Of a DNA stretch of 36,673 nucleotides, positions 3,216 to 36,673 are shown piece after piece (position 1 is the stretch's first letter; the number at the start of each line of letters is the position of its first letter). Both the position numbers and the translations under genes were made by a program. Source of the DNA: Jimgerdemannia flammicorona. Lineage: Eukaryota. Below the pieces are notes generated by a model. That model saw only the letters and a list, made by a program, of their open reading frames with translations. It ran no database searches and was not told the DNA's origin. The stretch is from the NCBI GenBank assembly GCA_003990765.1, contig RBNJ01000207.1, positions 1-36,673 of the forward strand, given 5' to 3'.

Positions 3216-3375
3216 ACTTCATGTTGACTCAGCTTTGTATACTGTGACTTTGGTTTGACTCAGCTTTGTGATCATGCAGGTGATTTCCAGATTTGTTCAG
3301 AGGTTATGTGTAATTTTGGTGGCTTGTTCAGCAGGTGATATGTGGTTTCAGTGGCTTGAAGATTGTGTGCTTACA

Positions 3376-5005: not shown

Positions 5006-5056
<51 letters not shown>

Positions 5057-8104: not shown

Positions 8105-10938
8105 ATTTGGCAGATACCTATTGGTGGGATATGGGAGATATAGCTGGGAGAGAGCAGAAGGATAAAGAGAAGAGAGTTGAGCAAGAGCTCCATTAGTAGC
8201 TAAGGTTACTAGAAGGGGAGAAATTTTCAAGAGAATAATACTCCCAGTTGGTCAAGAAGGTAGCTGAGTTGAAGTTGAATTTGAAGGCAGTGAAAGATAG
8301 AGTGGTAGATGGACTATTAGTAAGATTGCAGGCAAGGTGATTAGAAGAAGGAGAGCAGTCTACTAAATATTTATCAGGAGTCTTGAGAGCTAGAAGAGTG
8401 CAGCACAGCTGGGATTCAGTGTTGTGAGAGAATAGAGTTGAGGTTACTGATATTGCCAATATGTTTAGAGAGATCTCTGGTCAATGGCATACTCTCTGGC
8501 AGAATGAAGGAGGGCTGGTGGGGAGAGAGGCTTTACAGAAGGCTAATGACAATTTGGTTAGCAGCTGGTCAGTAGCAGTAGTGCCTGAGATAGGTGGGGC
8601 AGTGATAGGTGCAGTGGCCCTTGAAGAGGTGTTGGAGGTTCTGAGGGAGATACAGGCTGGTTTGTTGCTGGGAGAGGATAGACTACCTTGGGAGTTCTGG
8701 AAGGAATTCCAGGTTGAGTTTGGGGGATGGCTTGTTGAAATGGTGAACTTTGTGTTGAGTGAAGACTGCTGGATTGACAATGGCTCCTTAGGGTTGATCT
8801 CTCTGCTATACAAGAAGAAAGGAGACTGATGTGTGTAAAGGAACTGGTGGCCCATCATGCTACTAAATGTGGATAGAAGTTGTGTCCAAGATTTTGGCAG
8901 GGAGGATACAGTGGTGGATTGGCCAATTGGTGGGTGAGGATCAGCAAGAGTTTGTGAAGGAGAGGCAGATTTGAGACAGTATAGCCTGAGTGCAAAATGT
9001 TTTGGAAGGATGTAGAAGCCAGCAAGTAGATGGGAGGATGGTGTTCCTGGATCAAGAAAAGGTATATGATAGGGTACAGTAGAACTATTTAGAGGTGGTA
9101 CTATAGAAGGTAGGGTTCAGTATGGTAGAGGCTTAAAAATTGATGGGCCTAGTACAAAGCAGCTGAGCAGTAGTGCTAATGATTGAGTAGTGTGGCCCAG
9201 AGTTTGTTTTGGAGAGAGGCATATCACAGGGAGATCCTCTTTCACCCTTGCTCTATATTTTGTCCTTGGAGCCTTTATTGATACATATAGCTGAAGGAGA
9301 GGTTGACTGGGCTGAAGATGGGAGATGTGATCTGGAAGTTGGGGGTATTTACTAATGATATAGTGGTAGGGTTAGACTGTATAGCAGATGTAGAAAGCTT
9401 ACAGGAAGGGGTTGGACAGTATGAGAGGCTGATAGAGGCAAAGCTGAATTGGGGCAAGTGTGAGACTATGGAGCTTAGAGCTGGTCTGGGAGAGAATGGA
9501 TGTTTTGGATGAATAGTAGGTACTGGAGAGACAGTTCAATATTTGGGTATCTGGTTTTCAGTATATAGTATAGTACTACCAAAGGAGTAGTGGTGTGGAA
9601 TGATACAGAAGTGAGAGAGTGCTCTAGTAGGCTGGTCAGAAAGGAGCTTCTCCTTGATTGAAAGGGTTGTAGTATTGAATATATATTGGTTACTGAAGTT
9701 GTGGTATTTGAAGTACCATTTGGACTTTCCTAGATGGATGTACAGAAACTGAAGAGAGTGATAGAAGGATAGCTGTGGTAAGGGAGGCAGCTACAGATTA
9801 GTTGGAAAATAGTAGTAATGCAGACAGTAAATAGAGGTCTGGGGCTGGTGGACTTCAGGAGGCAACTGAAGGTAATTTGGAGCTAGTGGGGTTATTGATT
9901 AGCAGAACTAAGAGTGGATGATTGGAGCAGACTGGCTATGGACAATTGGGAAGTCAGGTTCTGTCCCTATGGTGAGGCTTGGAAAGATATGTGCAGTTTG
10001 CTTCAGGTGAGAAGGGTTAGCAGATTATACTACTGGGGGTTCTGGTGGGGTATTGTGGAGACCTGGCTGGCAATGGAACTTATAGATTCAGAGCCAGATG
10101 AAGGGGAGGATCTGGAGCAGTAATGTGGTGATTAGGAGATCTGTATATTGGTAGCCACCAGTTGACAGAATACTCTCTGGCTGGGGTGATGGAATGGATC
10201 CAGACTGGTCCACTTGAGAAATGGCCAGTTAGTTGGCAGAAGGCTGGGTTTGGTGAAGATTGAGAGTGGAGTTGGGTTTGGAGTTGGGGGGCCTTCTTGC
10301 TCAAGGTGGTACCACTAAAGTTTTGGATAGTATAGTGGATATTTTTGCAAAGGAATGTAATACTGGAGTATCAGATAAGATAGATGAAGGCAGAAGGTAA
10401 AAGAGAATATGAGTAGTGTTGTGAGATGGATGGAGATATGGTGCAGATGCCAGAGCATATCTTGGCAGTATGTCCAGGAGTTGAGGGATTTTGGCTAATA
10501 TTGGAAGGTTACTGAAGCTATGAGAGTGAGTGACCAGGGGACCCCACTAGCCAGGTAGTCAAGCAGTGACTGGTGGAAGAGCCTGGGGACATCTGGGTCC
10601 TAATGGTGGTGCACTGGTAATGGGTGTTTAAGAGAGATCCTTGAATGGGTATTGGTGAATTGGTGGAGTGGTGGAGGTGGTTACTTTTGGAAGTAGTGCA
10701 AGGGTGGTGGTATCAGGAGAAGAGGCACCAGCTAGGGGCCATGAGGAAGATGCAGGACATTGTATAGAGGAGTCAGGAGCACCTAGTGCTTGATGACAGA
10801 GGGGTGCAGTGGAAAGAAGGCATGAGCTGATGGGTCTCTCTTTACATTTTGTAATTATAGTAGTCATCATATGGGAGCATATTTGTATTATAGAATTTGG
10901 TAATAAAGGAGTCCAAGTAACTATAACAAAAAAAAAAA
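8105..10938 (+). mobile_element. 5'-truncated L1/Tx1-like LINE (copy D): decayed RT, C-terminal Cys/His motif, 3' UTR and poly(A)
   Basis: GEDRLPWEFW, LISLLYKKKGD, FLDQEKVYDRV, GISQGDPLSPLLY, VFTNDIVV (FADD), GLGLVDF, EHILAVC; A11 at 10928-10938; 5' boundary approximate. Confidence 0.9.
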
Positions 10939-10984
10939 TGAGACTCAAACTGGCAATAGAGTCTGAATCTGTAGTGGACTTCGA

Positions 10985-11084
10985 CTACCAAAAGCACCCT
11001 CCAATCACCAGAAGTACCCTTTAACTACCAGAAACACCCTCTGACTGCCAGAAGTACCCTCCAACTACTAGAAGCACTCTCTGA
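10985..11084. repeat. 20-bp minisatellite, 5 copies
   Basis: Units similar to ACTACCAGAAGYACCCTCYR. Confidence 0.85.
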
Positions 11085-11119
11085 CCTAGACTTGAACTTC
11101 TTGGTGGCTTAGAGTTGCT

Positions 11120-11460
11120 TCTTTACTACTAGTGAAGAGCTATAAATTTTGCATACTCTCTCTGCCAACCCTGCCAACCTCCTGGTCCAGGTATAGGCTG
11201 CTTGGGGGTACCCCATACTACTAGCAGAGGGCCATAAATTTTGCATACTCCCCCCACCTACCCTACCTCCTCTGCCAACCCTCTCTACTCTGAATACTTG
11301 TGGCTTAGGGCTACCCCTTGCTGCTGGCAGAGGGCCACAAATTTTGCATACTCTCTCTATTAACTCTGCCCACTGACCCAGGCACTGATAGCTTGGGGCT
11401 GCCCCTTGCTGCTTGTAGAGGGCTGCAAATTTGGCATACTCTCTCTGCTGCTACCAATCC
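11120..11460. repeat. Degenerate tandem repeat of about 90-100 bp, 4 copies
   Basis: Core (CCCCTTGCTGCTGGCAGAGGGCCAC)AAATTTTGCATACTC recurs near 11144, 11236, 11339 and 11427. Confidence 0.8.
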
Positions 11461-11607
11461 TGCTGATTACTGCCCTACTCAGGCTGTAAACTCTGGACTG
11501 AGTTCTCAGTTTTTTTTTCCTTTTTATTTTAAATTATTAAATAATCCACAAGACTAATTAACTTATCTGTGAACCCCAAGACCTGCTAAATTTTAGTGGC
11601 CTATGCT

Positions 11608-14600
11608 CTATCAAGATTTCAGATATATATATATCTAGATTGTCTCAGTATTCAGTACACATCTCTTAGGGGTAATGAGATCCACTCTACCTGAGAATAT
11701 CTGCTTGACAGGAGCACTGGTGGCAGAAATTACCAAGTAGTCTTAAGCTATACCACACAGACTAGGGAAGTCTATTTGATATAACTGCAGCTATATGTCC
11801 CAGTGGATAGAGCAGTGGTTAGAATAGTAGTTAGATTGGTAGATTAAATTGGTCAAATACATACAACTAACTGCCTGTCTGACAACCCACCTTCCACTAG
11901 TTGAGTACCTCCACATCCTCTGGCAGAATCACATAGTTGCTGGTGAGATAAATAGTGAGTTCATCTATTAATGATAGCTCTTTCACTAATGGCTCCCTCT
12001 TCTTCTTTCTGCTGAAGTAAATGTGAGATAGGAGAGATCTCTTGGCATATTTGTCCAGACTTTGACCAGAATCTTATAGTGGTGTATAGTTTTTCCAGTA
12101 TGTTTTGATTATGACCCACTTGGTTCTCTCAATATAGTACTGCTCCCAGCCCTGATCTTTATGATATTGTAGCTTTAAGTAGGTCCAGCACTGTTCAGAG
12201 AAAGAGTGAGTTTTGTAGGAGTTTCTCTATTTTGGAAAGGGCAATGGCCACATGCTGACATATCTGTACTGATTGAGTATATAACAGCATCTGTTTTGGA
12301 GTAGTATTTTCTAAACTTACTTATAGCAACCTCCATGGCATCTCTCTGATCCAGGCTTAACCATAAATCACTACTATCCTCCAGCCTGTCCTTGAGCTTG
12401 TCCTCTAGTTGGTCAATCAAAAGGTTGTACATATACTAGTATTGCAGAGCAACCAACATTTTCTCTTTGAATGTGAATGGGCTTAGGGGATCTGGGCAGC
12501 ATAAGAACATTTTTAATTGGCTCAGGGGATTGGAGGCCAATCTTTTTTTACTGCAGGATATTCAGTGTAAGGATGAGGATGATCAGGTTGAGTGGACTAG
12601 AGAATGGGGTGGGGCTACTGCTTGGTTTGGAAAAGTGGTGATTCTGGTGAGGAAGGGTAGAGGTGACTTGGGGGGTATTGGAAGCTGGGGTGATCGCTTG
12701 GTCTGGGGAGATTGGCATTGGCTGGGGTGAGAGTCAGTGAGGGTTGGCTCTTGCTACTGCCCTGTGGTTAGGGGTGAGCAGATTGCATGGATTAAGGAGC
12801 TGCTGGAGGAGGGTATTCTCTTGAAGGAAGGGGTTGATGTGCTTGGGGGGGACTTTAATATGGTTTGGGATCAGCATCTGGACCAAACTGATAGTGGGAG
12901 GAGTGTAGGAGGGAGAAGTGGAGGCCTGGATACTACATAGGAGGAGGTGGAGTGGCTGAGCTCCTTAGGGGATATGGGCAGAACACAATAGGGCAATTCC
13001 AGGGTCTACACACATTGGGTGAATGGCTTAGGTACAAGGATTGACTAGATTCTGATAGCAGAATACTGGGGGTCTGATGTCTGGAAGTTATTGGAGGTGG
13101 AATGGTGCCCATGGTCTGATCACTGGAGACTGTTAGGACAGGGGCAGTTTGGGGGAAGTGGAGATGGACCCAGACATTGGTGCCTTAACTCCTCCCTGCT
13201 GGCTGAGAAGGAGTTGTGGGATTCATGGATAGAGGACATTCAGGTGAAGTTGCTTGCTGGAGGTGTGAGGGTTTGTCTGTGAGTGTCCATTGGATGAGAT
13301 TGAAAGAGGCTGCGAGGGTCTATTGGGGAGGGGCTGGGAGAGAAGCTGGGAGGTAGAGGAGGAAGTATATGAGGTGTGCTTCCAACAGGCTGAGGAGATT
13401 GCAAATGGATTGGGCAGGTCTGCTTACTTCTGATGGTATAGAGGATTGGAGGTTAGCATGGATTAAATTGGAGATTATGGAATTGCAACAGGTATTGAGA
13501 GAAGAGGAGGAGGTGCATATATAAGATATGACTGCTAGGCTAAGGTGGCAGAGGCTTGAAGAGGGTGAGAGGCCTACTAGATATTTATCCCATCTGCTCA
13601 ATGCTAGGAGGGTACAACATTGGTGGGATGGAGTCCTAGATGCTGATGGGGACATGGTACATGGCATGTAACAAATCTTAGAGGTTTTGAAAGAGAGATG
13701 GCAGAGTTTGTGGAGTGAGGAAGAAGGGAGTGCTGATGAAGATATATTAGGAGAATGGAGGCCACCACAAGTGGCTGGACTGGATGACTTGGCCTTGCTG
13801 GTGCAAGGTAAGAAGGTCCAGAGTATCCTTGTGGCAACTAAAACTGGAACAGCATCAGGGGAGGATGGACTACCATGGGACTTCTGGAAGAAGATAATTA
13901 AGGTCCCTGGCATTTTGGGTGAAATAACTGCTCTCTGTGATCATGTTCTTCAGAGTAGTGAGTGGGTTGGAGAGCAGGACCTCGGGCTGGTGGCTTTATT
14001 GTACAAAGACAAGGGGAGGAGAGAAGACTGAAAGAACTGGCAACTGATCATGCTTTTGGACATAGACAGGAAGATGGTGACTAAGGTGGTTGTTGCAAGG
14101 CTGCAGAAGGTTGTCCAACAGGTGCTGGGGGAGGAGCAGCAGGGCTTTGTTGGAGGCAGACTTATAAGTATTGCAGAGCTTATTGTTGGAGTCATTTATT
14201 TGACTATATTCTTCATATAATTGTCAAAACACTGGCAGTTATATGTGATGAGATATTACATTATGTGGAGATAGACAAAATGAGTATAGGGTTAGAGCAA
14301 TTACTACTTATCTCCAAAACTCTGATAATATTCCTAAGTATATCTCATATACTTTCACCTATAGCCTTGCTCTACATTTCCTTATCAGTAGCAATTATTG
14401 AATCAATTGGCTTTTTTTGTTTTATTTTTTATTTTTAAAAAAAAAAAAAAAAAAAACTTCAATTATCAGAAACAAGTTGCTTCAGCTGACTGAAAAAAAA
14501 GAATACATACTACAGAAAACTCCAGCATATGCTAGATCATTGCAAATATCAAGTTTCAATACATACAGACATCCAATATCAGCTCTTTCAGGGCTAAACT

Positions 14601-20518: not shown

Positions 20519-20894
20519 TGTCATATAGTAATTGCTGAGTCCTTCAAATATGCCAGATTCTCTTCAAGGTATATCTTTTAAACTAACTCAAGTTTGTTAT
20601 AAGCAAGTTCTTATTGGAGTACCTTCCCAAGGTCTTATAGTCCTCAAACTTCTTATCTTTAAACTGTCTTATTATCTCTTAGATTACTTGTAAGGGATTG
20701 TATAAATTGCACTGAGAGGAACTAAATGGACTAACTTTATTTTAGAGGAAATAAGAGAGATATTTATATAAAATATAATTTAATGGTTGCTAAGATATAA
20801 AGCTAAATATAAATTCAATAACTAAAATAAAATACCAGGACAGAAAAAACTGCTAAGTTCCAGGGTCAGCACTAATGGTTGTATAGATTCAGGA

Positions 20895-21020
20895 TGCTGA
20901 TATAATTCAATATCACATCAGAATGCCAGTGCTAGTATTATTCAGTATTACATCAGAATGTCAGTGCTAGTATTATTCAGTGTTACATCAGAATACTAGT
21001 ACTGGTATTATTCAGTATAA
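20895..21020. repeat. 35-bp tandem repeat x3.5 in U3 (also at 28157-28281)
   Basis: Unit similar to GCTGGYATTATTCAGTATTACATCAGAATGCCAGT. Confidence 0.9.
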
Positions 21021-21029
21021 CCAAGGGAC

Positions 21030-21875
21030 TTAAAGTAGAATATTCAAGATCATAGGGTCTTCATCATCAGAGGTCAGAATGTCTTCAAAGGAGATGAGGT
21101 CTGCAAATTTGTTGTCATCACATAGGTTACATATTTTGCATACTTTGCATGCTTTGTCATGCATCTCATGTATGTCATGTGGGATGACATCATCGCTGAT
21201 GATGTCATTATGTTCAATAGTGGAAAGGAGGTCTGGGGCTCTCCAGTCTATAAGGTTCTCTTCTACAAAATAGAGAACAAATGTGGGATCTTGGAGAGGT
21301 CTAACCTGGATGCTTGGGCCTTGGAATACTGAGATCAATTCTTGCAAGAATTGGTCTGGGTTGTCCTGGAGAATGGGATACCAGAAGTCTTCTACTTCAT
21401 CACTACTGAGGGTGATAGTGGACTGGGCTTCTGTAGCCACCCTGGCTTCTAGTACATTGATATGGTGAGATAACAGGTCTCTGAAATCTGAGACTCTAAC
21501 ATACTCCAAGTTAGGGATCAACCATGGTGCATGCCTGAAGATCTGATAGATCTTCTTAACTATCCTTGTTTTGTATATATCTATGGAAGTAGTATCTTGT
21601 AGCTCTTGAGTGCTGGCCTGTGGGAACTCCCAGCAAAGAAGATTTCCTATTTCATATTCCTGTCACATTTGGAGGCATTCAGTAGTAATAGTGATCCTAG
21701 TTTCTATTTCATGGTAGTAGAGGATATAGTAATAAAGGTCACCAGTACCCAGATTGACACTAGGAGTCCTTCTTGAGCAGATCCTCATAGCTCTTCTGAT
21801 GTTTTGGAACATCCTTTCTTTGACCGAGATGCCTTGGTGGTTCCTTGACCTTGAGGTTTGGTGAGTAGCAGACAT
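21030..21875 (-). pseudogene. LTR-encoded 281-codon ORF of unknown function with one internal stop
   Basis: Track ORFs 21663-21875 and 21030-21521 are in the same frame and the 47 codons between them are open; the only internal stop is TGA at 21665-21663. Confidence 0.8.
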
Positions 21876-22117
21876 TTCATTTGTAATGAGTCTTTGAGCT
21901 ATTTTGGGATTGGTGGGTCTTGTTGGTTGCTATTACTGTAGTTCCTTGATCCTTCTTTTATATTTCTCAAGATGCTTATACTGTGATCACAATGACTCAC
22001 AGTTGGTCATCATTGCTCATCTCATATGCTATATAATCTTCTTGTGCTCTGATCTGATGGCTTATAAGAAAAGACTGTCTCCTGTGCTGATGTCATTATT
22101 CTGGAGTCACTGTTACA

Positions 22118-22127
22118 TCTTTCTCCT
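22118..22127 (-). promoter_or_regulatory. Polypurine tract
   Basis: Minus-strand AGGAGAAAGA directly before TGTAAC of the 3' LTR. Confidence 0.75.
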
Positions 22128-22481
22128 GAATAAGAATCTTCTCAAGTATCCTTATTCATTGGTCCAGTTCTGAAAAATTTGCTGATCCCATAACCTCTGG
22201 CAAGGGGTCGAAAAGTGGTATTTATGAGCTGGTGTCTTCCCTTTGTATTTTGGTCTGATGGTGAAGGGTTGCTCCCTTCATATAGAGCAAGGGCCTGATT
22301 CTGATCTTGACCAATCAGTTGACAGTTTGAACTCCTCTGGCTTTGAAAGTCTCACAGATGAGTAGTTGCTGATGCTGTATCTCTTAGAGAATGGTCCAGA
22401 TAGATAGCCTGCTGGTCATGAGATATGCTGTTATGATTCGCAAACTAGAACCTTACAGGTAGTCATTATGTTTTACTTCTC

Positions 22482-23630
22482 TTATATAGGTTTGTGATAC
22501 TTCTTGAGTCTGTTCCTATATACTATGGTAGGCAATATGGTCCCTGAGATTTTTCTAAGCCAGAAGATAGTTCCTTTGATATTTTGTACATAGAAGAGTC
22601 CTTCCCATTTGGGCTCCAGTTTTTGTGACTATGAGGCTTCTACTATATTTTGATACAGTAGGACCTTTTCTCCAATTCAGATGGGTTCTAGGGTCTTGTG
22701 ATTCTTTTCTGTATTCTTTCTTATCAGTAGTTATGACTTGATAATGTAATCTTCAGCCTTCTTCCTGATTTGGTGTAGTCTCCAGATTTCTACATCAACC
22801 CATCTCTAAGTTAGGTCTAGATTTATAGCTGAGGTTTTATCAGAATCTTCTTCTCTGAAGAGCAGCTCCCTTGGGGTAAAGTATGTGCTCTGTGATTGTA
22901 TATCTCATAGGACAGAGAGGGCAGTTGGGAGATAGTTATTCCAATTCTCATATATCTCTGAGATCTTCACCAGGACATTCTTGAGGGTCTTGTTGGTTCT
23001 TTCTGTCTGTCCATTTCCTTGAGGGTGGTATGTAGTGGTCTTGATGTACTGGATCTTGTATTTCTGATCTATTATCTTGTGGAATTCATTGACAAATTCT
23101 GTACCATAGTCTGTTGTGATTTGCTTTGGTGTCTTGTAGCAGCAGATGATTTCTTGGTGTAGGAAGTCAGCTATAGAGAGAGCATTGGCTTCTTGTAATG
23201 CTCCTACTTCTATTCATTTGATAAAGAGGTCTATAATAACTATAATATAGCAGTTTCCTGATGGTGTTACTGGTAGTGGCCCAATGATATCCATTGTGAT
23301 GTGGTGGAAGGGAATAGACTCAATTCTTGATGACTCAGGTGCCTGGTCTTACTGATCTTATTTCTGTTTTTGGCACTTGTCACACCCTTTGACAAATTGG
23401 TGCAGGTCTTCTTCTATTTTGGGCCACTATATGGTTCTTCTTGCCTTGTTATATGTGTTGGTTCCTCCTAGGTGTCCTTGCTTGTGTACTTCCTTCATTA
23501 CTTGATACTTCTTATATTTGGGTATTACTAGCTTTCCTCCTTTTCTGAGTATAGTGTTGTCTAGTTCAAACTGTTTCCAAGTCTGGTTGATAGTGGTGAT
23601 TGTCCAGGGTTTGAGGTGGTCGGGCATCTT
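22482..23630 (-). pseudogene. Integrase (HHCC, DDE core, GPY/F-like C-terminus); no chromodomain seen
   Basis: EVHKQGHLG...CDKC, MDIIGPLP, TDYGTEF, YHPQGNGQTERTN, KLEPKWEG, RNRLKKY. Confidence 0.92.
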
Positions 23631-23699
23631 CTACTGCCCAAGATAGCTGATTAATCCATAGAATAGCTCCTTATTCATGTTGAGTAATCTTGATGGGAG

Positions 23700-25000
23700 T
23701 ATTTCAGGGTATCCTTGAGAGTGCATCAGCATTGGTGTTGGTTCTTTCAGAGTGGTGCTTAACAGTACAGTCATACTCTTGCAGCCTGTAGATCTATCTG
23801 ATATATATTCCTTTAGGGTTCAGAGTGTGGAATAGCCAGGCAAGAGCAGAATGGTCTGTTTGAATAGTGAAGTATTTCCTGGTTAGGTAGTAGTGGAACT
23901 TGTCTACTGTCCAGACTACTGCTAAGCGTTCAAGCTTGCATGACTCATAGTTCTGTTCTGCTCCATGAGTACCTTAGCTTGTATAGGAGATGATATATTT
24001 ATATCCATCTTTCTTCTGAGCTAGGACTGCTCCAAGTCCTATAGCACTTGCATCTGTCTGCAGGATGAATTCTAGGTTCCAATCTGGTCTTCTGAGGATA
24101 GGTGCTTGGGTCAATCTGGTCTTGAGTTCATTAAAGATTTCTTGGTGCTTCTTGGTCCATTTGAATTTAGTTTCCTTCTTCAGTAGCTTGTAGATAGGTG
24201 CTGCAATGTTGGAGTATCCTTTGATGAATCTTCTGTAGTAGCTGACCAGTCCAAGAAAGGCGTAGACTTCTATAGTTGTTCTGGGTCTTGGGTAGGCTAC
24301 AACAGCCTCGATCTTCATGGGGTCTGTGTGGATTCTGGTTGATGAGGTGTCCTAGATAGGTGATTTCTTGAGCTGCAAACTTGTATTTCTTGGGCTTTAT
24401 GTAGAGGCCATGCTCCTTGAGCTTCTTGAGGGCTAGCTGTATGTGATTGATATATTCCTATGCAGTATTGCTGAAGATGATCATATCATCAACATAGACA
24501 AAGAGCCATTTTCCAATCTCATTGCTGAAGACTCTGTTTATCATTTGCTGAAAACTTGCTGGGGTATTGCACATTCCAAATGGCATTCACAGGTAGATAT
24601 AGGTGGTGTCAGGTGTGATGAAGGCTAATTTATTACTGGTATCTTGAGTGAGACCAATCTGATGGAAGTCTGGGAACAGATCCAAGGTGGTGTAGTATTT
24701 GGCTTCACTTCTAAGGGTGGTAAGGATTTCTTGAATATTTGGCAAGGGCTGCCTATCCTTCTTGGTGATGGCATTGAGCTTTTTGTAGTCAATATAGAGT
24801 CTTGGTGCAAACTCTCTAGGCTTACTTTCTTTCTTCAGGACAAGGACAATGGGTGAAGCCTAGGGACTGATAGCTTGTTTGATAATTCTGGCTTCTTCTA
24901 TTTTCTTAAGTTCTGCTCACAGTCATTCTCTGTAGGCAGGTGGTATGGGTCTGACTTTCTGGTAGATAGGCTTGGTATCACCAGTGTCAACTTTGTGATA
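23700..25000 (-). pseudogene. Reverse transcriptase and RNase H
   Basis: DLFPDFHQ, MPFGMCNTPASF, VYVDDMIIFS, FLGLVSYYRRFI, LQTDASAIGLGAVLAQ, QTDHSAL, NADALSR. Confidence 0.95.
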
Positions 25001-25164
25001 GTACTTGGGTTCTTGATTGTGGATATCTCTGAAGTCTGTAGCAAGTACTTCTTCATTCTAGTGCAGGATCTTGAGAAGTTATTCTTCTAGGGGAAAGTTT
25101 TCTCCAATGGTATATATGTACTTGTTCTGAGTTTGGTAATCTTAGTGGTGGTATAAGCTCCTCT

Positions 25165-25565
25165 TCTAGTAGATCTAAAGCCTTATTCTCCTCTCTTGGT
25201 CTTGATGAGTTCAATGGCTTCAATGATCTTGGGTTTCTTGATTTTGTGGATCAGCATCTGGCCAATCCTATCATACTTCTTGACTTCAAATGGGGTGGTG
25301 GGGTTGTAATTTCTGACTATGAGGAAGATCTTACCAGTGTAATCAGGGTCAATTACTCCTCCTTTAACTGAGATTTCACTTTTGGCCAGACTGCTCCTGG
25401 TCTTGATAATTCCAATATGGTTTTCTGGCAACTTGAGTCCAATTCCAGTACCAAGTAGGGTGGTGGTCTGTGGTTTGAGGGTAGCATCTTGAATGCTGGC
25501 AAGGTCCATTCCTATGGCTCCTTCAGTCTTATATTCTGAGATCTTAGCTTTGGGGTAAAACTTCT
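25165..25565 (-). pseudogene. dut: dUTPase domain in pol, between protease and RT
   Basis: All five trimeric dUTPase motifs: IGMDL, TRSSLA, GVIDPDYTG, DRIGQ, RGE*GFRST. Confidence 0.95.
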
Positions 25566-25929
25566 TAACCTTGAGGGTGATGTCTGATTCTTATTCCTCC
25601 TCATTATCACTGTCAGCTTGAAGCTCTGGGGGTTGGTCATCTTCTTTGGCTTTCCTTTTTGCTTTGGTGGCTTCTTGCTCATATTTCTGTTGGCAGATTT
25701 TCCTGACTTCACTGATACAGGACCAGCAGTAATTCAGGTGTTCAGAGCAGTACATCCTAGTACCATGGGGGCATCTTCCTTGAGGAGCATAGCTATTGAT
25801 GATCTTGTTGTACTACTGCTCATCTGTGAGCTTGGGTGTCTTGTTCTTGTTCTTGTTTACTGAGTGCATGAAGACCTCTGTGTCCTCTTCATCTCCTTCC
25901 TCTATGTCTGGTAGAACTCCTTTGTGGAT

Positions 25930-26300
25930 ATTGATAGAGACTTATACCTTTCTTTCTCTATAGTTGATCTGCATCTTCTAGGCATTGAGGTCAATGATGG
26001 TCTTGGCCTTGTGAAGCCATTAGTTGCTAATGAGGATATCATAGTTGGTGGCACTTGTAACAATCATATCTACTAGAATGGTAGCTCCTTCTATTTTGAT
26101 GGGGACTTCTTGGATTTTGCCAAGAGGGGTAGCTCATGTACCATCTGCTGTGACATAGACTATCTTGGTAGACTCTTCAATATCTCAGCCTAGGCAGTCA
26201 ATTGCCTTCTTGCTCATAAGGTATTCTCCAACACCAATATCAATGATGGCATCAAAGATACAGTCTTTGATCTGACATAGGGTATAGGCTGATGTCTTGT
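25930..26300 (-). pseudogene. Retropepsin aspartic protease
   Basis: AIIDIGVGEYLMS (decayed DTG) and DILISN*WL; same frame as CCHC, DUT and RH. Confidence 0.85.
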
Positions 26301-26489
26301 ACTGGTCTTCAGATTCTTCACCTAAGTTTTCAGATTCTTCCTGTGCATTGTGAGCTTCTACAATCTTATACTCTTGATTCTTGGCAGTAGTTGTAAGCCC
26401 TACTCTCAACTGCTGTCTGAAGACAGGGACTTCAACTAGCTGTCCAAAAGTAGTATTGACCTTCTATTCCTTGAGGTCCTTATAGATAT

Positions 26490-27750
26490 CATACTAGTGG
26501 ATCTTGGTCTTGTGTAGCTTCTGTTTCTTCTTACTTTCACTTTCTCCTGAGACTGGAGTAGTGTCTTCAATGATTTGACAAACAGCTTTATCTAACTCTA
26601 TGTCTTGATCAATCTCCTCAGGTTGAGTCTTGCTTTGAATAGTGACAGCTGAAGTCTTCTTTGGTCTTCCAACTGGCTTGCTGTTGCTCTTCTTATCATA
26701 GGGCTTGGACCAGGTTCTGGTACCTTCAGTAGCAGGGTAGAATTCAAGCTTCTTATAGTATTCTTCATCATTAGTATTACCAATCTCCTTGATGACTACT
26801 GTATTGATTTGTTCTCTAGTTCTGCTAGTATTGCTTGGTTGGGCTTTGTGTCTCATTTCAGTTATGCAATTCTTTGCATAGTGGCCTTCTTCTCTACATC
26901 TGAAGCATGTGATATTGCATTCTTCTATAGTAGCTGCAAATCTCTGCACTGGTCTCCTGTTGGCACTTTGGACTTCTCTAACAACATCACTAAGATATGT
27001 AGTTATCTTGGTGAACTACTTGGTGAGTTCTTCTACTGGGTCAGCTTTGGCTATCTTGGGGATGGTTGTCTGTTTACAACTGTGGCAAGTATGATACTAG
27101 TTGGCTTTGATGGCTCTATCTTGATACTAGTTATTTTCTCTATTAAGTATTCAGCAGAGTGTCTGGCAGTTCAATATCTCTGTACAAAGACCACTTTCTA
27201 ATCAAGAGTCAGTGCAGCTGAGGTAGACTGAATTGCTAGGAAAATTTCAGGGTAAACTCCTTTAAAGAAGGTTAAATTCACTATTTGTTCCTTGAGGGCA
27301 TCATCATAGCCAGCTAAGACAATCTGGTGGCAGATTCATGTATAGAATGAGTTGGGATCTTCACTAAGTCTCTGGCAGATAGTATTGAGTTGATCCTTGA
27401 GAGCTTGCTTGATCTCTTTAGTATAGTATATTATTCTGAGAAAGGCCTTCATGTTGGCAAGTTTTGCTATACTATTATTGGCAATAGTGGCTGTATTGAA
27501 CTTGTCTCTGGTAGGTCCTCTGAGACTGACTGGTAGAAGGGCCAATTGTGCATCCATACCAAGAGCTTGTATGGTAGCAAATTGTTCAAAGTCTTTAATG
27601 AAGGTCAGGATTGACTCTTCAGTAGTATATCCATAGAATATGAGAGGACATATTTCTATCTTGTCTTGAATTCTTGCAGGAGTGACTCTTGTAGTCAGGG
27701 TAATTATTGTGGGAGTTGTTTGTTTTTCAGCTTGAAAGTGAGGGATTCAT
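26490..27750 (-). pseudogene. Gag with CCHC zinc knuckle
   Basis: PLIFYG...TFIKDFEQFA capsid-like start; CFRCREEGHYAKNC. Confidence 0.9.
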
Positions 27751-27779
27751 CTTGAATCACCAGCCAATGGGTAACAAGT

Positions 27780-29074
27780 TGTCACATAGTAGTCACTGAG
27801 TCCTTCAAATATGCCAGATTCTCTTCAAGGTATATCTCTTAGACTAACTCAAGTTTGTTATAAGCAAGTTCTTATTGGAGTATCTTCCTACAATCTTATA
27901 GTTCTCAAACTTCTTATCTTTAAACTGTCTTGTTATCTCTTAGATTGCTTGCAAGAGATTATATATATTACACTGAGAGGAACTAAATGGACTGACTTTA
28001 TTTCAGAGAAAATAAGAGGGGTATTTATATAAAATATAATTCAATGGTTGCTAAGATATAAAGCTAAATATAAATTCAATAACTAAAATAAAATGCCAGG
28101 ACAGGAAAAACTGCTAAGTTCCAGGGTCGCCACTAATAGTTATACAGGTTCAGGATGCTGGTATAATTCGGTATCACATCAGAATGCCAGTGCTGGCATT
28201 ATTCAGTATTACATCAGAATGCTAGTACTGGTATTATTCAGTATTATATCAGAATACTGGTGCTGGCATTATTCAGTATAACTAAGGAACTTAGAGCAGA
28301 ATGTTCAAGACTATAGAGACTTCATCATCAAAGGTCAGAATGTCTTCAAAGGAGATGAGGTTCACAAATTTGTCATCATTGCATAAGTTATGTATTTTGT
28401 ATACTTCACATGCTTCATTATGTATCTTACATATATCATATAGGATGACATCATTGCTGATGATGTCATTACATTCGGTGGCGAGAAGGAGGCCTGGGGC
28501 TCTCCAGTCTATGAGATTCTCTTCCACAAAATAGAGAACAAATGTGGGGTCTTGGGGAGGTCTAATCTAGATGCTTGGGCCTTAGAATACTGAGATCAAT
28601 CCTTGTAGGAATTGGTCTGGGTTGTCCTGGAGGATGGAGTGCTAGAAGTCTTTTACTTCATTATTATTGAGAATAATAGTGGACTGGGCTTCTATAGTCA
28701 TCCTGGCTTCTAGCACATTGATATGGCAGGATAACAGGTCTCTGAAATCTGAAACTCTAATATACTCCAAGTTGGGGATTGACTATAGTGCATTGATGGA
28801 TCTTCTTAGCTATCCTTATTTCATGTATATCCATGGAAGTAGTATCTTGTAGCTCTTGAGTGCTGGCCTGTGGGAACTCCTGGCAGAGGAGGTTTCTTAT
28901 TTTGTATTCCTGCTATATTTGGAGGCATTCAGTAGCAATGGTGATCCTAGTTTCCATTTCACTACAGTAGAGGATATAGTGATAAGGGTCACCAGTACCC
29001 AGGTTAATACTAGGAGTCCTTCTTGAGCAGGTCCTTATGGCTCTTCTGATGTCTTGGAATATCCTTTCTTTGAC
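27780..29074 (-). repeat. 5' LTR (visible part) with a second, more damaged copy of the LTR ORF (28291-29074)
   Basis: Starts TGTCACATAG on plus; colinear with the 3' LTR up to CTTTCTTTGAC, where the LINE begins; 11-bp deletion near 28793. Confidence 0.92.
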
Positions 29075-31312
29075 ATCGGCTTTCACCAGTAACATTCAGG
29101 TGACACAAGACTCAGACAACACTTTTTACAATGTTTTTGGTATCTGATGACTAACAACATAGATGGCAATGATTGAACTAGTGAGCGTACTGACCAGGGG
29201 AGTGACAGCGCCTTTGGCTGGCAGCAGGTGGGGAGGAGGGGAGATGGTTTGGGGATGCCAGGGGCCTCGATGGCTAGCCAAGGCCCTGGTGGCGGAGGGA
29301 GGGGCGGTCTGAGGCAGAGAGGAGGAGAGGGGTCAACCTTTGCTGACAAGGTCAGAATGGGGAAGATGGCCTCTGGGTTAGATGGTTGGCTGGGCCTGGG
29401 GAAGGCATCAATGGCTACTGCTGGGGGTCAGGGAGGTGTACCCCGGGGTACTTCTGATGGTAGGGAAGGGGCCAGAGTAGGGGCTGGAATTGTGACTATT
29501 GATGGGGCTGTGACTGGGGATCTGGCAAAAAATCCAGATGTGATAGTGGTTGGCAATTCAGGACTTGGAGTGGGCACAAGGCCTGGGGATCTGGCTGATG
29601 GGGTGATGGGCATGGTGTCAGCCCCATTACTCAAGAAGTCGAGGTCAGAATTCGTGGTCACGATGTGCTTCTGGGGCTTGGCAGTGACAGTGAGGATGAT
29701 TTTGAGGCTGGTGGTGTAGGAGGCTAAGGGAGCAGCATCAGTGAAGTTCTTGAGGGGAAAGGAAGGGGTTGAGGTGGGGTTTGAGGAGGAAGACGCCTTG
29801 TTGGCAGCCATGGAGAAGGGGGTGATAGTTGGCGGAGTTGTGGTCTCTATGGCCCAGTGCATGCACTGGGACCCCCGAGTGGTGCAGTTGATAGTATTGG
29901 ACCTCCCAATGGTGTCAAAGGAAAGGACCAGGGAGTTGGTTGTGGAGGCAGTCAAGGAGTATGGCAAGAGTGTGGATGTTGGGTTCAAGGTCTGGGAGGG
30001 CATAGAGCTTAGAACTGGCGATGTCGATGTCAGGGTGAGGCTGGCTGAGAAGGATAATACAGGGAAGTCGAGGGACTGGCCAGCGGCACTGAGGTGGGGA
30101 CCAGTGGAGTGTAAGGTCACCAGGATGAAGGAGATCCTGGAGGAGGAGGAGGATCTGTTGGAGGCTCTGGAGGATCTGGAAGGGGCAGTGGCAAGGAGAA
30201 GATTGGCCTGGAAGGAGTTTGAGGCCAGGATGGTGGTGGGGGAGGTGGATGGAAAGAGGATCCAGATAGAGAAGGGGGCCTGGGAAAAGATGCAGGGGAG
30301 GAGGATCCAGAAGGAGCTGTTGGTGAAGTTGGGTGGGGGTGGGGCTGATGGAAGCTCAGGGGAGGGAGTTGCAGGGTTATGGGAGAGCACCTGGGCTGAG
30401 GGGGGAGAGATGGCCCAGGGTGGGGTTCAGATTGGAGGTGGGGAGGGGAGGGAGGGCAATTTGGAGGCAGATGCCAAAATGAGTGAGGGTGTGCACCCTC
30501 AGTATAGTGTTCCAGATGGGGCAGAGGGGGAGGAGGAGTTGATGGATGTGCCAGATGAGGAGTTGGATGAGTCAGTGAGAAGGAGCATGCTAGTGGACCC
30601 CAAGGTGGATGGAGGACAAATCGCTCAGAGGGCAGCGGAGGCAGTGGATGAGGAGAAGTGGATATGGAAGACCTTGGAAGGGATAGCAGCTGAAGAGCTG
30701 GGGGGTGAGGACTTCAGGATGTTGGAGGAGAAGCATTGGGAGGAGATCCTATGGGGAGAGGAGGTGCTGAGGAAGATGAGGAATGAGATCCTGGCAGTCC
30801 TCCTAGAGTCGGTTAAATATCAGGTTGATGATCAGCATGAGGAGGAACTTAGGAGGATTGCGAGTGACAGAGCAATTTTCTTGTAGAATTCGAGGAAGGG
30901 ACTGAAGAAGTGGCATGCTGTCTGCTTGGACTACAGGGCTGATATAGAGGAAGTGGACAGGGTGGAATATCAGGAAATCTTGGGGCACTGGATACTCAGG
31001 ATAATGCAGAGGGTGAATTGGAAGCTGAGCAGTACTTGGATCTGGTAGGAGATGAGATAAGCATGGAATTATAGGTTGGGGTCTCTATTGCAACATTTCT
31101 TCAATATGAATAGTACAACTAGGATTTTCTCATTGAATGTTAATGGGCTATGGGGGTCGGCTAGGAGGAAGTATATATTTGGTTGGCTTAAGGGACTGGA
31201 TGCAGACCTCTTCTTACTGCAGGATGTTCATTATGAGGCAGATGTAGACTTACAGGATTGGACTAAGAAATTGGGGGGTGCAGCAGTTTGGAGGGAGAAA
31301 GTGTGTATTCTC
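29075..31312 (+). mobile_element. L1/Tx1-like LINE copy A: 5' UTR, ORF1 and start of ORF2, interrupted by copy B
   Basis: Colinear with copy B; ORF1 from about 29147 to 31074, ORF2 ATG at 31106. Confidence 0.93.
29147..31074 (+). pseudogene. LINE ORF1 (RRM-like core, acidic helical C-terminus), copy A
   Basis: Track ORFs 29228-29719 and 29741-30886 are in frame; nonsense changes and one 1-bp deletion near 30985; true start uncertain. Confidence 0.8.
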
Positions 31313-31387
31313 ATCACCGGCTTTCACCAGTAACATTCAGGTGACACAAGACTCAGACAATACTTTTTACAATATTTTTGGTGTCCG

Positions 31388-33316
31388 ACGACTAATAACA
31401 TAGATGGCAACGATTGATCTGGTGAGCGTACTGGCCAGGGGGGTGATGGCACCTTTGGCTGGCAGCAGGTGGAGAGGAGGGGAGATGGTTTGGGGATGCC
31501 AGGGGCCTCGATGGCTAGCTGAGGCCCCAGCGGCAGAGGGAGGGGAGGTCTGAGGCAGAGAGAAGAGGAGAGGTCGACCTTTGCTGACAAGATCAGGATG
31601 GGGAAGATGGCTTCTGGGCTGGATAGTTGGCTGGGCCTGGGGAAGGTATCGATGGCTACTGCTGGGGGTCAGGGAGGTACACCCCAGAGTACTTCTGGTA
31701 GTAGGGTAGGGGCTGGAGTAGGGGCTGGAGATGTGACTGTTGATGGGGCTGTGACTGGGGATCTGGCAAAAAATCCAGATGTGACAGCAGTTGGCAATTT
31801 GGGGCTTGGAGTGGGCACGAGGCCCGGGGACCTGGTGGATGGGGTGACGGGCATGGTGTCAGCCCTGTTACTCAAGAAGTTGAGGTCTGAATTCATGGTC
31901 ATGATGTGCTTCCAGGGCTTGGCAGTGACGGTGAGGATGATTTTGGGGCTAGTGGCACAGGAGGCTAAGGGAGTGGCATCGGTGAAGTTCTTGAGGGGAA
32001 AGGAAGGGGTTGAGGTGGGGTTTGAGGAGAAGGACACCTTGTTGGTGGCCATGGAGAAGGGGATGATGGTTGGCGGGGTTGTGGTCCCTATGGCCCGGTG
32101 TATGTGCTGGGACCCCTGGGTGGTACAGTTGACAGTGTTGGACCTCCCTACAGTGTCGAAGAAAAGGACCAGGGAGTTGGTTGTGGAGGCGATCAAGGAG
32201 TATGGCGAGATTGTGGATGTTGGGTTCAAGGTCTGGGAGGGCACGGAGCTTAAAACTGGAGATGTTGATGTCAGGGTGAGACTGGCTGGAAAGGAGAATA
32301 CGGGGAAGTTGAGGGACTGGCCAGCTGCACTGAGGTGGGGACTGGTGGAGTGTAAGGTCACTAGGGTGAAGGGGACTCAGGAGGAGGAGGAGGACCTGTT
32401 GGAGGCTCTGGAGGATCTGGAAGGGGCAGTTGCAAGGAGGAGATTAGCCTGGAAGGAGTTTGAGACCAGGATGGTGGTGGGGGAGGTGGATGGGCAGAGG
32501 GTTCGGATGGAGAAGAGGGCCTGGGAGAAGTTGTAGGGGAGGAGGATTCAGAAGGAGTTGTTGGCACAGTTGGGCAGAGGTGGGGCTGGTGGAAGCTCCG
32601 GGGCGGGGGCTGCAGGGTTGCAGGAGAGTGCCTGGGCTGAAGGGAGAGAGATGGCCCAGGGCGGGGCTCCGATTGGAGTCAGGGAGGGGAGGGAGGATAC
32701 CTTGGAGGTGGATGCTGAAATGGGAGAAGGTGGGCACCCTCAGTATAGTGTTCCAAATGGGGCAGGAGGCGAGGAAGAGCTAATGGATGTGCCAGATGAG
32801 GAGTGGGATGAGTCAGTGAGGAGGAGCGCGCTGGTGGACCCCAAGGTGGATGGGGGACAGATTGCTCAGGGGGCAGTGGAGGCAGTAGATGAAGAGAAGT
32901 GGATGTGGAAGACCCTGGAAGGGGTAGTGGCTGAGGAGCTGGGGGGTGAGGACTTCAGGGTGATGGAGGAGAGGCATTGGGAGGAGATTCTACATGGGGA
33001 AAAGGTGCCAAGGAAGATGAGGAATGAGATCCTGGCTGTCCTCCTGGAGTCGGTTGAGTATCAGGTTGATGATCAGTGAGAGGAGGAGCTTAGAAGGATT
33101 GCGAGTGACAGGGCACTTGTCTTGTGGAACTCGAGGAAGGGACTAGAGAAGTGGCGAGCAGTCTGCTTGGATTACAGGGCAGATATGGAGGAGGTGGACA
33201 GGGTGGAGTATCAGGAAATCTTGGGGGCACTGGATGCTCGGGATATTGTGGAGGGTGAATTGGAAGCTGAGCGGCTCTTGGACTTGGCGAGGGATGAGAT
33301 GAGCATGGAATTATAG
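31388..33316 (+). pseudogene. LINE ORF1, copy B
   Basis: Track ORFs at 31598, 32558 and 33122 share one frame and end SMEL*; start uncertain. Confidence 0.85.
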
Positions 33317-33347
33317 GTTGAGGTCTCTTCTACATTATCTATTCAAT

Positions 33348-36300
33348 ATGAACAGTACAACTAGGATATTCTCATTGAACATTAATGGGTTACGGGGGGC
33401 AGCTAGGAGGAAGTATATCTTTGGTTGGCTTCGGGGTCTGGATGTGGACCTCTTCTTGTTACAGGATGTTTGGTATGATGCAAATGTGGATTTACAGGAT
33501 TGGACTAAGGAATGGGGGGGTGCAGCAGTTTGGAGGGGGAAAATGGGTATTCTTGTTTGGAAAGGGATGGGGGACATTGGGGACATTGGACATTGGGGGT
33601 CGCAGGTGGTGTGGGGAGTATGGAAGAGGCCTGGATGGGGCTCGCTGATGGTTGGGTCTTGTTACTGCCTGGCTGAGAGAGGGGAGAGAGTGGATTGGAT
33701 TCGAAGATTGAAAGAGGCTGGTTTATTGAGAGAAGTTGGATTTGACTGTATGGGGGGGGACTTCAACATGGTACAGGATAAGGAGTTGGACAGAACTGAT
33801 GGAGGGAGAGGCATATGAGGTGAAAGTGGTGGGTTGGTGGACTGGTTGGAGATGGAAAGGTTGTGTTCTTTGATAGACTCAGGGAGACATTTTTGGGCTG
33901 ATCGGTGGGTGTATACCCATTGGGCAGCAGGACTGGGCTCTAGGATTGACTGGGTTCTAATAGCAGAGTGTTGGGGAGCAGATGTCTAGATGGTGCTGGG
34001 AGTCATATGGTGTCCATGGTCTGATCACTGGGGGTTGCTTGGAGGGGGGAGGTTTGGGGGAAGTGAGGATGGGCCTGGACATTGGCGGCTAAATTCTTCC
34101 TTGTTGGAGGATGGGGCATTGTGGGAGGGTTGGGAAACAGAGGTGGTTGGCGTTATTGGCAGGTGGCGGGATCAAGGACTGGCAATTGGGGACCGCTGGA
34201 GAAGGTTGAAGGTGAAGGCTCAGGGGTATTGGAGGGAAGCAGGGAAAGGAAAGTGTGCTCAGTGAAGGCAGTGGGTGATGTGGGCCTCGCGGCATTTGGC
34301 GGTACTCATGGAGAGATGGGTGGGTGTGCTGGAGGATAGGGCCGAGACTGATTGGCATATTGCAAGGATCCGGCAGGAGGTGGAGGAGCTCAAAGGGGTA
34401 CTACGGAGGGAGGAAGAGAAACAGTTGCAGGGGATGGTGGCCCGCTTGTGCTGGCAGGGGCTTGAGGAAGGGGAGAGACCTACCAGGTTCTTGTCACAGT
34501 TATTACAAGCACGATGAACAAGGCAGTGGTGGGAGAGAGTTTTGGATGAGAATGGCAAGCTGGTGGTGGAGACTCCGGCGATTTTGGGCCTATTGCGATC
34601 CCAGTGGGGGAACCTTTGGAGTGAGGATGAAGGGGGACTGGATGCTCAGGACATTGACAGGCAGCTGGGGGATTGGCACCCGGACCCTGCCATAGGACTT
34701 GGGGCATTGGGGGACCTGGTGAGCGGCAAGGAGATTTGCAAGGTGGTGGCCTCTATGAGTAAAGGGACAGCCCCGGGAGAGGATGGACTCCCCTGGGATT
34801 TTTGGCAGAAGATGACAGGGGTGCATGAGGTACTAGAGGAAATGATGGCTATGTGCAATAAAGTTCTTCAGTCTGGTGCCTGGATTGGGGGACAGCACCT
34901 GGGGCTGGTCTCCTTACTATATAAGAACAAGGGCAGGAGGGAGGATTGGAAGAACTGGCAGCCGATCATGCTTCTGGACATGGACCGCAAATTGGTGATG
35001 AAAATCTTGGTGCTGCGGTTGCAAGGGATTGCACAGCAAGTGCTTGGTTTGGAGCAACGTGGGTTTGTCGGTGGTCAGTTGATTCGCGATGGGACGGCCT
35101 GGGTTCATGGAGTGATTGAGGGTGCCCGGGCTACAGGAGTGGATGGCAGATTGGTATTTTTGGACCAGGAGAAGGCTTATGATAGGGTGCAGAGAATATG
35201 GCTAGAAGGAGTGCTGAAGCGGATTGGTATCCCCCTAGGGTTCCGAGGTTCATTGATCAGACTCTTGGAGGACAGTCAGGTGGCATTGGTCATCAATGGC
35301 CACCGGGGGGTGACCTTCCCCCTGGGCCGTGGGGTGCCACAAGGGGACCTCTTGTCACCCATATTGTATGCCCTTTCCCTAGAGCCACTACTGGATAGGA
35401 TTCGGCATAAGATTGGAGGTTTGGATATTTTAGGGGTGAACTGGAAGGTGGGGGCCTTTGCTGATGACATGGTGGTCAGACTGGGTTCCTTGGGGGATGT
35501 TGGGGAGTTGCAGAGGATGGTGGAATAGTATGAGCGGGGTTCTGGTGCTAAACTGAACTGGCACAAATGCAAGATGCTGGTGCTGGGTGCTGGAATTGTA
35601 GGTGGCAATGTTATTGGGATGGTGGTTTCCGCTGGTGAACCAGTGTGCTACTTGGGGATCTACTTCTCGGTGTTCAGATCTCTTCTTCCCTGGGCATGGT
35701 GGGACCATAAACTGCTGGAGTGGGGCGATGTCTTGATACAATGGGGAGGCCGGCATGTGTCCCTTGCTAGGAGGGTGATGGTGTTGAATGTGTACTGGAT
35801 GCCAAAGCTGTGGTATGTTGGATATCATTTGGATTTCCCACTGTGGGTGGTTAAGAGGTTGTTGAAGATGGCGAGGTCGTGGATTTGGAGAGGGCGGCGG
35901 AGCCAGGTTGGTTGGGAGGTGCTCACACTGTCCTTGGAAAGAGGTGGCCTGGGCTTAGTGGACTTTACTAAGTGGCTTTTATGTCTGAGGGCCTGGTGGC
36001 TAAGGAGGGCAAGTGAGCTTAGAGGTCGGGAGTGGGTGCCACTCATGCAGAGGTTGTGGGAGGTTCGATACTCCCCACGTGGTGGCTCTGGCAACCTGCT
36101 TGTAATGGTGGCCATGGAAGGGAGCCGGAGAATGTGGTTTACAGGTTTTTGGTAGGGAGCGGTGGATGGAGCTAGGAAAATCGGCCTTTGGTGGCGAGGT
36201 GACGAGGCTGAGGAGGTTTGGGGACCACAGATGTGGAGATGGGACAGGCTTCTATTGGGTGGTGTTCCGGTGGAGGACTTTCAGCTTGGCGAGAGTCTGG

Positions 36301-36673
36301 AGTGCCTGCGAGGTCTAGGTGGAGACCTGTGGCCTGAAGCCTGGCAGAGGGTTGGAATCGGGGAAGAGTGGGATTGGAATGGGCTCTGGCTTTAGAGCAA
36401 AAGGGTGAGGCAGTGGCTGCCCCCCAAGTTCTGGTTGGCATGGTGGCAGATCCTACAGCAGAATGTGATGCTGAACTATCGGTCTGGTCACTTGGTGGAT
36501 GGTGGGGTATTCGAGTGCAACGATTGCTTCAATGTTGGTCAGGAGGGAGGAGTGGTACAAACGCCTGAACATTGGCTTAGCGAGTGCGAGGTTTTGGGGG
36601 AGTTTTGGAGATGTATAATGGACAGGTTAGGGTTGGGGGCTGGGGGAGGGGAGGGAGGGGGGAGATGGGGAGA
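33348..36673 (+). pseudogene. LINE ORF2: APE endonuclease and reverse transcriptase
   Basis: NINGLRG, LLQD, GGDFN, SRID, WSDH, APGEDGLP, DQEKAYDRV, GVPQGD, FADD, YLG, GGLGL; six track ORFs in one frame separated only by point stops. Confidence 0.96.

Follow-up and report, generated by a model that had tools for sequence, protein, structure and literature searches.

We examined an open reading frame (ORF) that lies inside the 3' long terminal repeat (LTR) of a decayed retrotransposon in Jimgerdemannia flammicorona (contig RBNJ01000207.1). The window, by which we mean the whole stretch of DNA that was analysed, comprises 36,673 nucleotides, and its main features are collected in Table 1. The retrotransposon reads on the minus strand in the order gag (with a CCHC knuckle), RT, RNase H and integrase, which is the order of Ty3/gypsy elements, the integrase match being weak. 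A dUTPase domain sits within pol, between the protease region and RT; Pfam recovered no protease domain in the element, and inspection by eye found no clear primer-binding site of tRNA type after the 5' LTR. An earlier note on this DNA, made from its letters alone, had described a gypsy-like element with a dUTPase, and both the strength of the dUTPase match and the domain order bear this out.

Table 1. Features of the retrotransposon, its LTR-borne ORF and the neighboring element, in window coordinates
Feature	Position	Strand	Basis
Decayed Ty3/gypsy LTR retrotransposon	~20.5-29.1 kb	(-)	Two LTR copies; Pfam domains in stop-to-stop pieces
3' LTR, 1599 bp	20519..22117	(-)	Homology to 5' LTR over 20519-21824; polypurine tract and TG; X4 contig breaks
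TATA-like TATATAAATA (20770-20761) and AATAAA (20741-20736), candidate genomic-RNA promoter and poly(A) signal	20736..20770	(-)	Read from sequence
35-bp tandem repeat, 3.4 copies, just 3' of the stop, CTGAATAATA in each unit	20901..21018	(-)	Repeat analysis
LTR-borne ORF, 281 codons and TAA, pseudogene through one TGA (21665-21663)	21030..21875	(-)	Homologues; shuffle test
Two 9-bp tandem repeats creating a Cys-rich stretch in the tail	21130..21180	(-)	Absent from all homologues
TATAAAAG, candidate ORF promoter, 87 nt upstream of the ATG	21955..21962	(-)	Sole copy in the LTR, sense strand
Polypurine tract AGGAGAAAGA	22118..22127	(-)	Read from sequence; TG directly after
Internal region, many stops	22128..27779	(-)	ORF pieces; Pfam
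Integrase	23213-22905	(-)	Pfam rve, E 0.039, weak
RNase H	24351-23974	(-)	Pfam RT_RNaseH_2, E 6.4e-19
RT	24859-24587	(-)	Pfam RVT_1, E 1.5e-06
dUTPase domain	25590-25183	(-)	PF00692, E 1.5e-24
gag with CCHC knuckle	27015-26494	(-)	Pfam zf-CCHC, E 5.2e-05
5' LTR, shortened	27780..29074	(-)	First 293 bp gone
GC-rich non-LTR (LINE) retrotransposon cutting off the 5' LTR	29075..36673	(+)	RVT_1, E 8.7e-19; soil contigs end at 29080

The internal region is flanked by direct repeats (20519-21824 and 27780-29074) that are 86.8% identical over 1306 bp. The 3' copy begins with TG at 22117, after the polypurine tract, and ends in ACA. Contigs from soil metagenomes, mapped to the element as 6052, 1109, 571 and 62 pieces in runs X1 to X4, span it entirely, and two contigs of run X4 match the window up to 22117 and diverge exactly beyond that position (agreement 0.62). 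These contig breaks agree with an LTR boundary at 22117. Because the LINE cuts the 5' LTR at 29074/29075, the first 293 bp of the repeat, including the ATG and the first 17 codons of the ORF, are visible only in the 3' LTR, and the probable placement of the ATG and of TATAAAAG inside the repeat rests on the polypurine tract with its TG and on the two X4 contigs. Of the 1599-bp LTR proposed earlier, the boundary at 22117 is thus upheld by these two signs, while likeness between the two copies extends over 1306 bp only. In other X4 contigs, mostly less than 90% alike, the match covers the internal region and breaks off about 10 nt inside the 5' LTR (27790, 27714), which may reflect a sister family whose interior is related but whose LTR is different. 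Relative to the window, the soil contigs have five extra nucleotides behind 24333, and these occur in several variants; the window copy has therefore suffered a 5-nt deletion, and hence a frameshift, at the RT/RNase H junction.

The surroundings of the element are rich in older repeats. The LINE contains endonuclease and RT remnants, has 50-59% G+C and a strong G skew, and carries in its 5' part a tandem duplication with a period of 2241 bp within 29074-33553 (29074-31311 and 31315-33553, 87% identity). Older LINE copies, 65-70% alike, occur at 8400-14200 and 3374-5700, and the remaining repeats in the window are LINE-like. The very AT-rich stretch between 14000 and 20500 (23-34% G+C), which has no long frames and contains six of the window's seven TATAAAAG matches, is probably an older repeat that has undergone heavy mutation. 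Two unclassified pairs of short direct repeats (about 300 and 240 bp; 85-88% identity) occupy 17-821 and 818-2044, at the window's left end.

The ORF occupies the minus strand from the ATG at 21875 to the TAA at 21032-21030 and is interrupted by a single internal stop, the TGA at 21665-21663. This reading of the frame agrees with the earlier one, as does the LTR alignment at the stop itself, where the 5' LTR has TAG, so that TGA and TAG are each one G>A change away from TGG. The ORF lies wholly within the LTR (22117-20519), starts 243 nt behind the polypurine tract and the LTR boundary, and is duplicated together with the LTR, a homologue being present in the 5' copy of the same element. Its longest open stretch is 210 codons. 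When the LTR was shuffled 2000 times under a first-order Markov model, no shuffle had as many as 210 open codons in a row (maximum 165), and none of the 2000 gave a 281-codon frame with one stop (maximum 200); the frame is therefore far beyond what chance would produce. Elsewhere in the window we found no homologues by tblastn (E<=10) or with the family HMM run with --max on all 874 six-frame pieces, the next piece having an E value of 0.74. Only the two LTR copies matched, which contradicts the proposal that two further LTR-like families of the window carry homologous ORFs. The same HMM search detected no likeness to the element's own gag or pol (best E 0.74).

The ORF belongs to a small family of orphan proteins in which at least three lineages can be told apart. 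A word-index search with the single protein (P0001, with X at the stop) returned five homologues. An exhaustive HMMER search of 1.84 billion representatives gave six matches at E<=0.001, five of them real; P0011 (E 6e-4) is a low-complexity repeat protein and was dropped as a false match. With a profile of all members, 12 clusters were found in 5.8 billion proteins. Lineage A consists of the window ORF, P0002 to P0007 and P0014, which are 65-80% identical; lineage B consists of P0008, P0009 and P0016, and lineage C of P0010, P0012, P0013 and P0015, the last a fragment (E 8e-4). Identity to P0002, a member of lineage A, is about 30-47% in lineages B and C. Intact full-length members have 271, 291, 325 and 342 residues, share an MP..R..QT start with the window's ATG, and have W at the position of the window's stop. 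The family members come from environmental assemblies only and are all named 'hypothetical protein'. These database relatives are gene calls on short environmental contigs and are hence open frames by selection; since gene calls can only be open frames, the share of intact copies cannot be read from them. Pattern searches added one further relative: the first search of metagenomes gave 119 matches with no relatives among them, and the second gave 85 matches with one, a 1535-nt contig (L001) with an intact 291-codon frame. Similar searches yielded no relatives from 65 matches in prokaryote genomes and none from 210 matches in viral contigs. The LTR context is established for the window element alone, L001 and the database proteins lying on short contigs that carry no such context.

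Comparison of the window ORF with L001 indicates that coding capacity has been kept by long-term purifying selection. Over 249 aligned codons the two are 43.8% identical in amino acids, and identity at codon positions 1, 2 and 3 is 0.53, 0.67 and 0.38. Different codons are used at 61 of the 109 identical residues, and counting by the Nei-Gojobori method gives a pN of 0.39 and a pS of 0.79, the latter saturated. The inference of selection is drawn from these codon-position identities and from a pN below a saturated pS. An alignment made on DNA only shows the same pattern (0.50/0.62/0.37; chi-square p 4e-8), so it is no artefact of protein-guided alignment. The flanks of L001 cannot be aligned with the window. 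A dN/dS test had been proposed as a check, together with one of the integrity of the frame in other copies, and both speak for a gene: between lineages, nonsynonymous change is far below synonymous change, and where intact relatives have W, the soil contigs that cover the site (22 of 22) have TGG. The shuffles, the intact homologues, the ratio of pN to pS and the presence of the frame in both LTR copies all support the claim that this is a present or former protein-coding gene inside an LTR, and we are highly confident that a real conserved gene is carried there. That the frame is a chance or relic one with no coding function is barely credible. Such a view could appeal to the stops in both window copies and to the low confidence of the AF2 model described below, but it is already contradicted by the shuffles, by the codon-position pattern and by a pN well below pS, and the divergent homologues are intact.

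Both copies in the window are pseudogenes. What is left of the frame in the 5' LTR (29074-28294) is without codons 1-17 and has accumulated five stops, a frameshift and an 11-nt deletion. Besides that deletion, 162 differences separate the two LTRs, and 157 of these are transitions. Transitions thus make up 97% of the divergence, which amounts to 14.2% in the ORF part versus 9.6% in the AT-rich remainder. The changes show a CpA/TpG bias, with 43 of 90 pyrimidine changes located before A and 38 of 67 purine changes located after T, and the pattern resembles that left by RIP or another cytosine-deamination process. Within the ORF the changes between the LTRs are spread evenly over the codon positions (40/30/43), and the synonymous fraction among changed codons (27/94, or 0.287) matches the 0.284 ± 0.047 obtained from random transitions. 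Decay after insertion was therefore neutral and RIP-like, which, taken by itself, would point to an ascomycete host. At 21663 the covering soil contigs have the base that makes TGG in 19 of 19 cases in X1, 2 of 2 in X2 and 1 of 1 in X3, X4 having none that cover the site. Contigs of X1 differ from the window by A>G at 316 places, T>C at 257, G>A at 179, C>T at 125 and transversions at 63; since most of these are A>G and T>C, it is the window copy that has an excess of G>A and C>T. Soil contig depth is low over 20701-21302, which may reflect the 9-bp and 35-bp repeats that are private to the window.

LTR elements are known to capture host genes, as is stated in a review of their additional ORFs (PMC7264820), and the ORF could in principle be a host gene taken up once by transduction with no role for the element. 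We consider this very unlikely. The frame and the same start are kept in three lineages at about 30-47% identity, the matches are without exception hypothetical proteins from short environmental contigs, and in G+C content the ORF (0.41) is the same as the element interior (0.40-0.42). Fused or longer forms were absent among proteins of 600-2000 residues, which is weak evidence in the same direction.

How the gene would be expressed depends on which promoter is used, and the LTR offers two candidates. Downstream of the ORF lie the TATA-like TATATAAATA and an AATAAA, in keeping with the earlier statement that the ORF is located upstream of a TATA box. Upstream of it lies TATAAAAG, which is also present once in L001, 80 nt upstream of the ATG, where 0.05 copies are expected per contig; the other upstream DNA of L001 is unalignable with the window. 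In place of the expression from the 3' LTR envisaged earlier, this conserved TATAAAAG points to a promoter that belongs to the ORF itself and is present in every LTR copy, a reading that is evenly poised in our judgment. If the downstream TATA is the start of genomic RNA, the ORF would be in U3, as the earlier note assumed, whereas a start at the upstream one would place it in a long R, and a TATAAAAG conserved upstream of the ATG is therefore compatible with a gene in R, that is, in the 5' leader, and not in U3. Under such an arrangement TATAAAAG would be the main promoter of the LTR and the same gene would be the first cistron before gag, in an R of about 1.2 kb, with a short LTR-only mRNA arising whenever the LTR poly(A) signal is used. 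The distance of 80-87 nt kept between TATAAAAG and the ATG in two lineages, the AATAAA at 20741-20736 downstream of the ORF and the lack of any sign that TATATAAATA is used would all suit it. Nevertheless, an R of about 1.2 kb is unusually long, and TATATAAATA with an AATAAA 29 nt behind it is the usual short-R layout of LTR elements, and we regard a long R as rather unlikely. It is also unlikely that the 5' LTR gives rise to a spliced subgenomic RNA, because fungal introns are short and an intron of about 5.8 kb would be needed. In a fungus, transcription of the gene from a promoter of its own is the more plausible route.

The product has no recognizable domain, as the earlier note had remarked. 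Pfam assigned the ORF to 0 families and offered nothing credible for any of the 13 members, and no described family was matched. Searched with a profile, PDB sequences yielded 0 matches at E<=10, and no look-alikes at or above 0.9 were found in the ESM Atlas, where the model of P0002 itself has a pLDDT of 0.35. The AF2 model made from the 13-sequence alignment is poor (mean pLDDT 45.9), and Foldseek found 0 matches to it in the PDB at E<=0.001. The model has helices at about 18-184 and a small region of strand, and its tail is disordered. The expectation of a helical protein with an acidic tail is thus matched by a mostly helical core, predicted at that low mean pLDDT, and by the charge of the tail. 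Across lineages the N-terminal 45 residues are basic (net charge +1 to +8), the core of 167-176 residues holds the conserved blocks, and the tail of 59-126 residues has a net charge of -13 to -25. D+E make up 21-31% of the tail, and residues that are bulky and hydrophobic 26-35%. Its composition is kept although its sequence and length vary, and the short motifs acidic-L-I-x-F and (x-)L-N-F recur in it across lineages. A Cys-rich C-x2-C run near the C-terminus was considered as a zinc or family motif and ruled out, being the product of a private 9-bp tandem repeat.

A variable tail that is acidic and rich in hydrophobic residues, combined with a basic N-terminus, fits in composition the class of acidic activation domains (Tas/VP16-like). 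A Tas- or Tax-like transactivator function, suggested by composition alone, is the likeliest of the roles we considered, though we have our doubts. The same gene could instead encode a factor for host interaction or anti-silencing that acts through the short linear motifs of its tail and not as an activator. Such a factor might, for instance, recruit the host's trafficking, autophagy or SUMO machinery, or it might act as a block to RNAi, DNA methylation or RIP. The recurrence of acidic-L-I-x-F and x-L-N-F across lineages is in line with this idea, as is the abundance of the element family in soil fungal DNA, and since the host heavily mutates repeats, counter-defence would pay. However, matches to motifs this short are frequent by chance, Pfam revealed no similarity of the ORF or the 13 members to known suppressors, and the window copy was not spared decay. 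We therefore view a role in host interaction or anti-silencing as unlikely.

The reading towards which we lean, if only slightly, is that the window holds a decayed copy of a genuine accessory gene carried wholly inside the LTR of a dUTPase-bearing fungal Ty3/gypsy family. In this model, a family with its dUTPase between protease and RT carries the gene entirely in the LTR. Both window copies were killed after insertion by RIP-like mutation, consisting of transitions with a CpA bias. Transcription would be driven by a TATA box that belongs to the gene (TATAAAAG) and lies within the LTR, about 85 nt before the ATG, so that any LTR, whether 5', 3' or solo, could potentially serve as an expression unit. 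The product, with its basic N-terminus, helical core and long acidic-hydrophobic tail, would most likely be a regulator that works in the nucleus to raise the element's transcription, with the repeats that follow the ORF as a possible target; a 13-mer of the 35-bp unit recurs about 120 nt past the stop in L001, a weak match (E 0.087). In its strongest form, which we put forward tentatively and with more doubt than conviction, the LTR would be a self-contained polymerase II gene, comprising a TATA, an ORF of 270-340 codons, a repeat and a poly(A) signal, that expresses a trans-acting nuclear factor for the whole family. If this is true, every LTR, including the solo LTRs left by recombination, expresses a factor that drives or protects the family, and the gene is a retrotransposon counterpart of the retroviral transactivators that spreads as part of the repeat.

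Retrotransposon LTRs are regarded as modules that supply a promoter and a terminator but encode nothing, and it is routine to mask them ahead of gene calling. The conserved gene found here within one means that fungal gypsy elements can acquire accessory genes of the kind that complex retroviruses have, that solo LTRs might be coding units, and that a class of orphan proteins borne by transposable elements may be hidden by repeat masking. The family also offers a testable model of element self-regulation, or of the countering of genome defence, in repeat-rich soil fungi.

Extra genes in LTR retrotransposons are known from other settings. Additional ORFs (aORFs), such as the env-like genes of Athila and Bagy2, gene23 of Grande, those of RIRE2 and Retand and the antisense ORF of the fungal Boty, are conserved, unassigned in function and present in most copies of their families; their place is internal, either ahead of gag or in the interval from pol to the 3' LTR, and none is named inside an LTR in the accessible portion of that account (PMC7264820). 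The ORF described here is likewise a conserved extra gene, but it lies inside the repeat itself and so does not share the internal location of those aORFs. A dUTPase in fungal gypsy elements is also known, from PosPlaTy3 of Postia, from Phanerochaete and from Tmt1 of Tuber, and in PosPlaTy3-5 the dUTPase is again between PR and RT (PMC2864245); the window element shares the Ty3/gypsy type and the dUTPase with these and adds an LTR-borne gene. An 'add. ORF' appears in a figure legend of that paper with no place given, and the sections available describe no LTR-borne gene (PMC2864245). A paper on Tuber mentions Tmt1 and no LTR gene (PMC12581995). Searches of the literature for ORFs in LTRs returned essentially papers on MMTV in addition to irrelevant uses of the term, among them the Talaromyces 'LTR ORF' reports, which concern polyprotein ORFs. 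Within the reach of these searches, and as far as the accessible parts of the sources go, a conserved protein gene in a Ty3/gypsy LTR seems to be unpublished.

The arrangement of a gene within an LTR is otherwise known mainly from a few retroviruses. The closest likeness in layout is to MMTV sag, the superantigen gene in U3 of this betaretrovirus, which is a complete sense frame of about 300 codons inside the LTR and is hence present twice per provirus. The two differ in that the ORF has no sequence relation to sag (Pfam, 0 families), its host is a fungus and its carrier a Ty3/gypsy retrotransposon without env, and, whereas Sag is a membrane protein, the ORF protein has no sign of being one. 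More generally, we found no homology to Sag or to any other described retroviral accessory protein with Pfam, applied to the ORF and 13 members, or in the PDB profile search at E<=10. Foamy virus tas/bel1 and bet, HTLV tax and lentiviral nef resemble the ORF as accessory genes at the 3' end of a retroelement RNA. Nef, bel/bet and tax only overlap U3 and start in the internal region, whereas the LTR ORF lies wholly behind the polypurine tract and shares no homology with any of these genes by the same Pfam and PDB profile searches. Tas has its own internal promoter and an acidic C-terminal activation domain, and this combination is the layout that we propose for the gene in the LTR.
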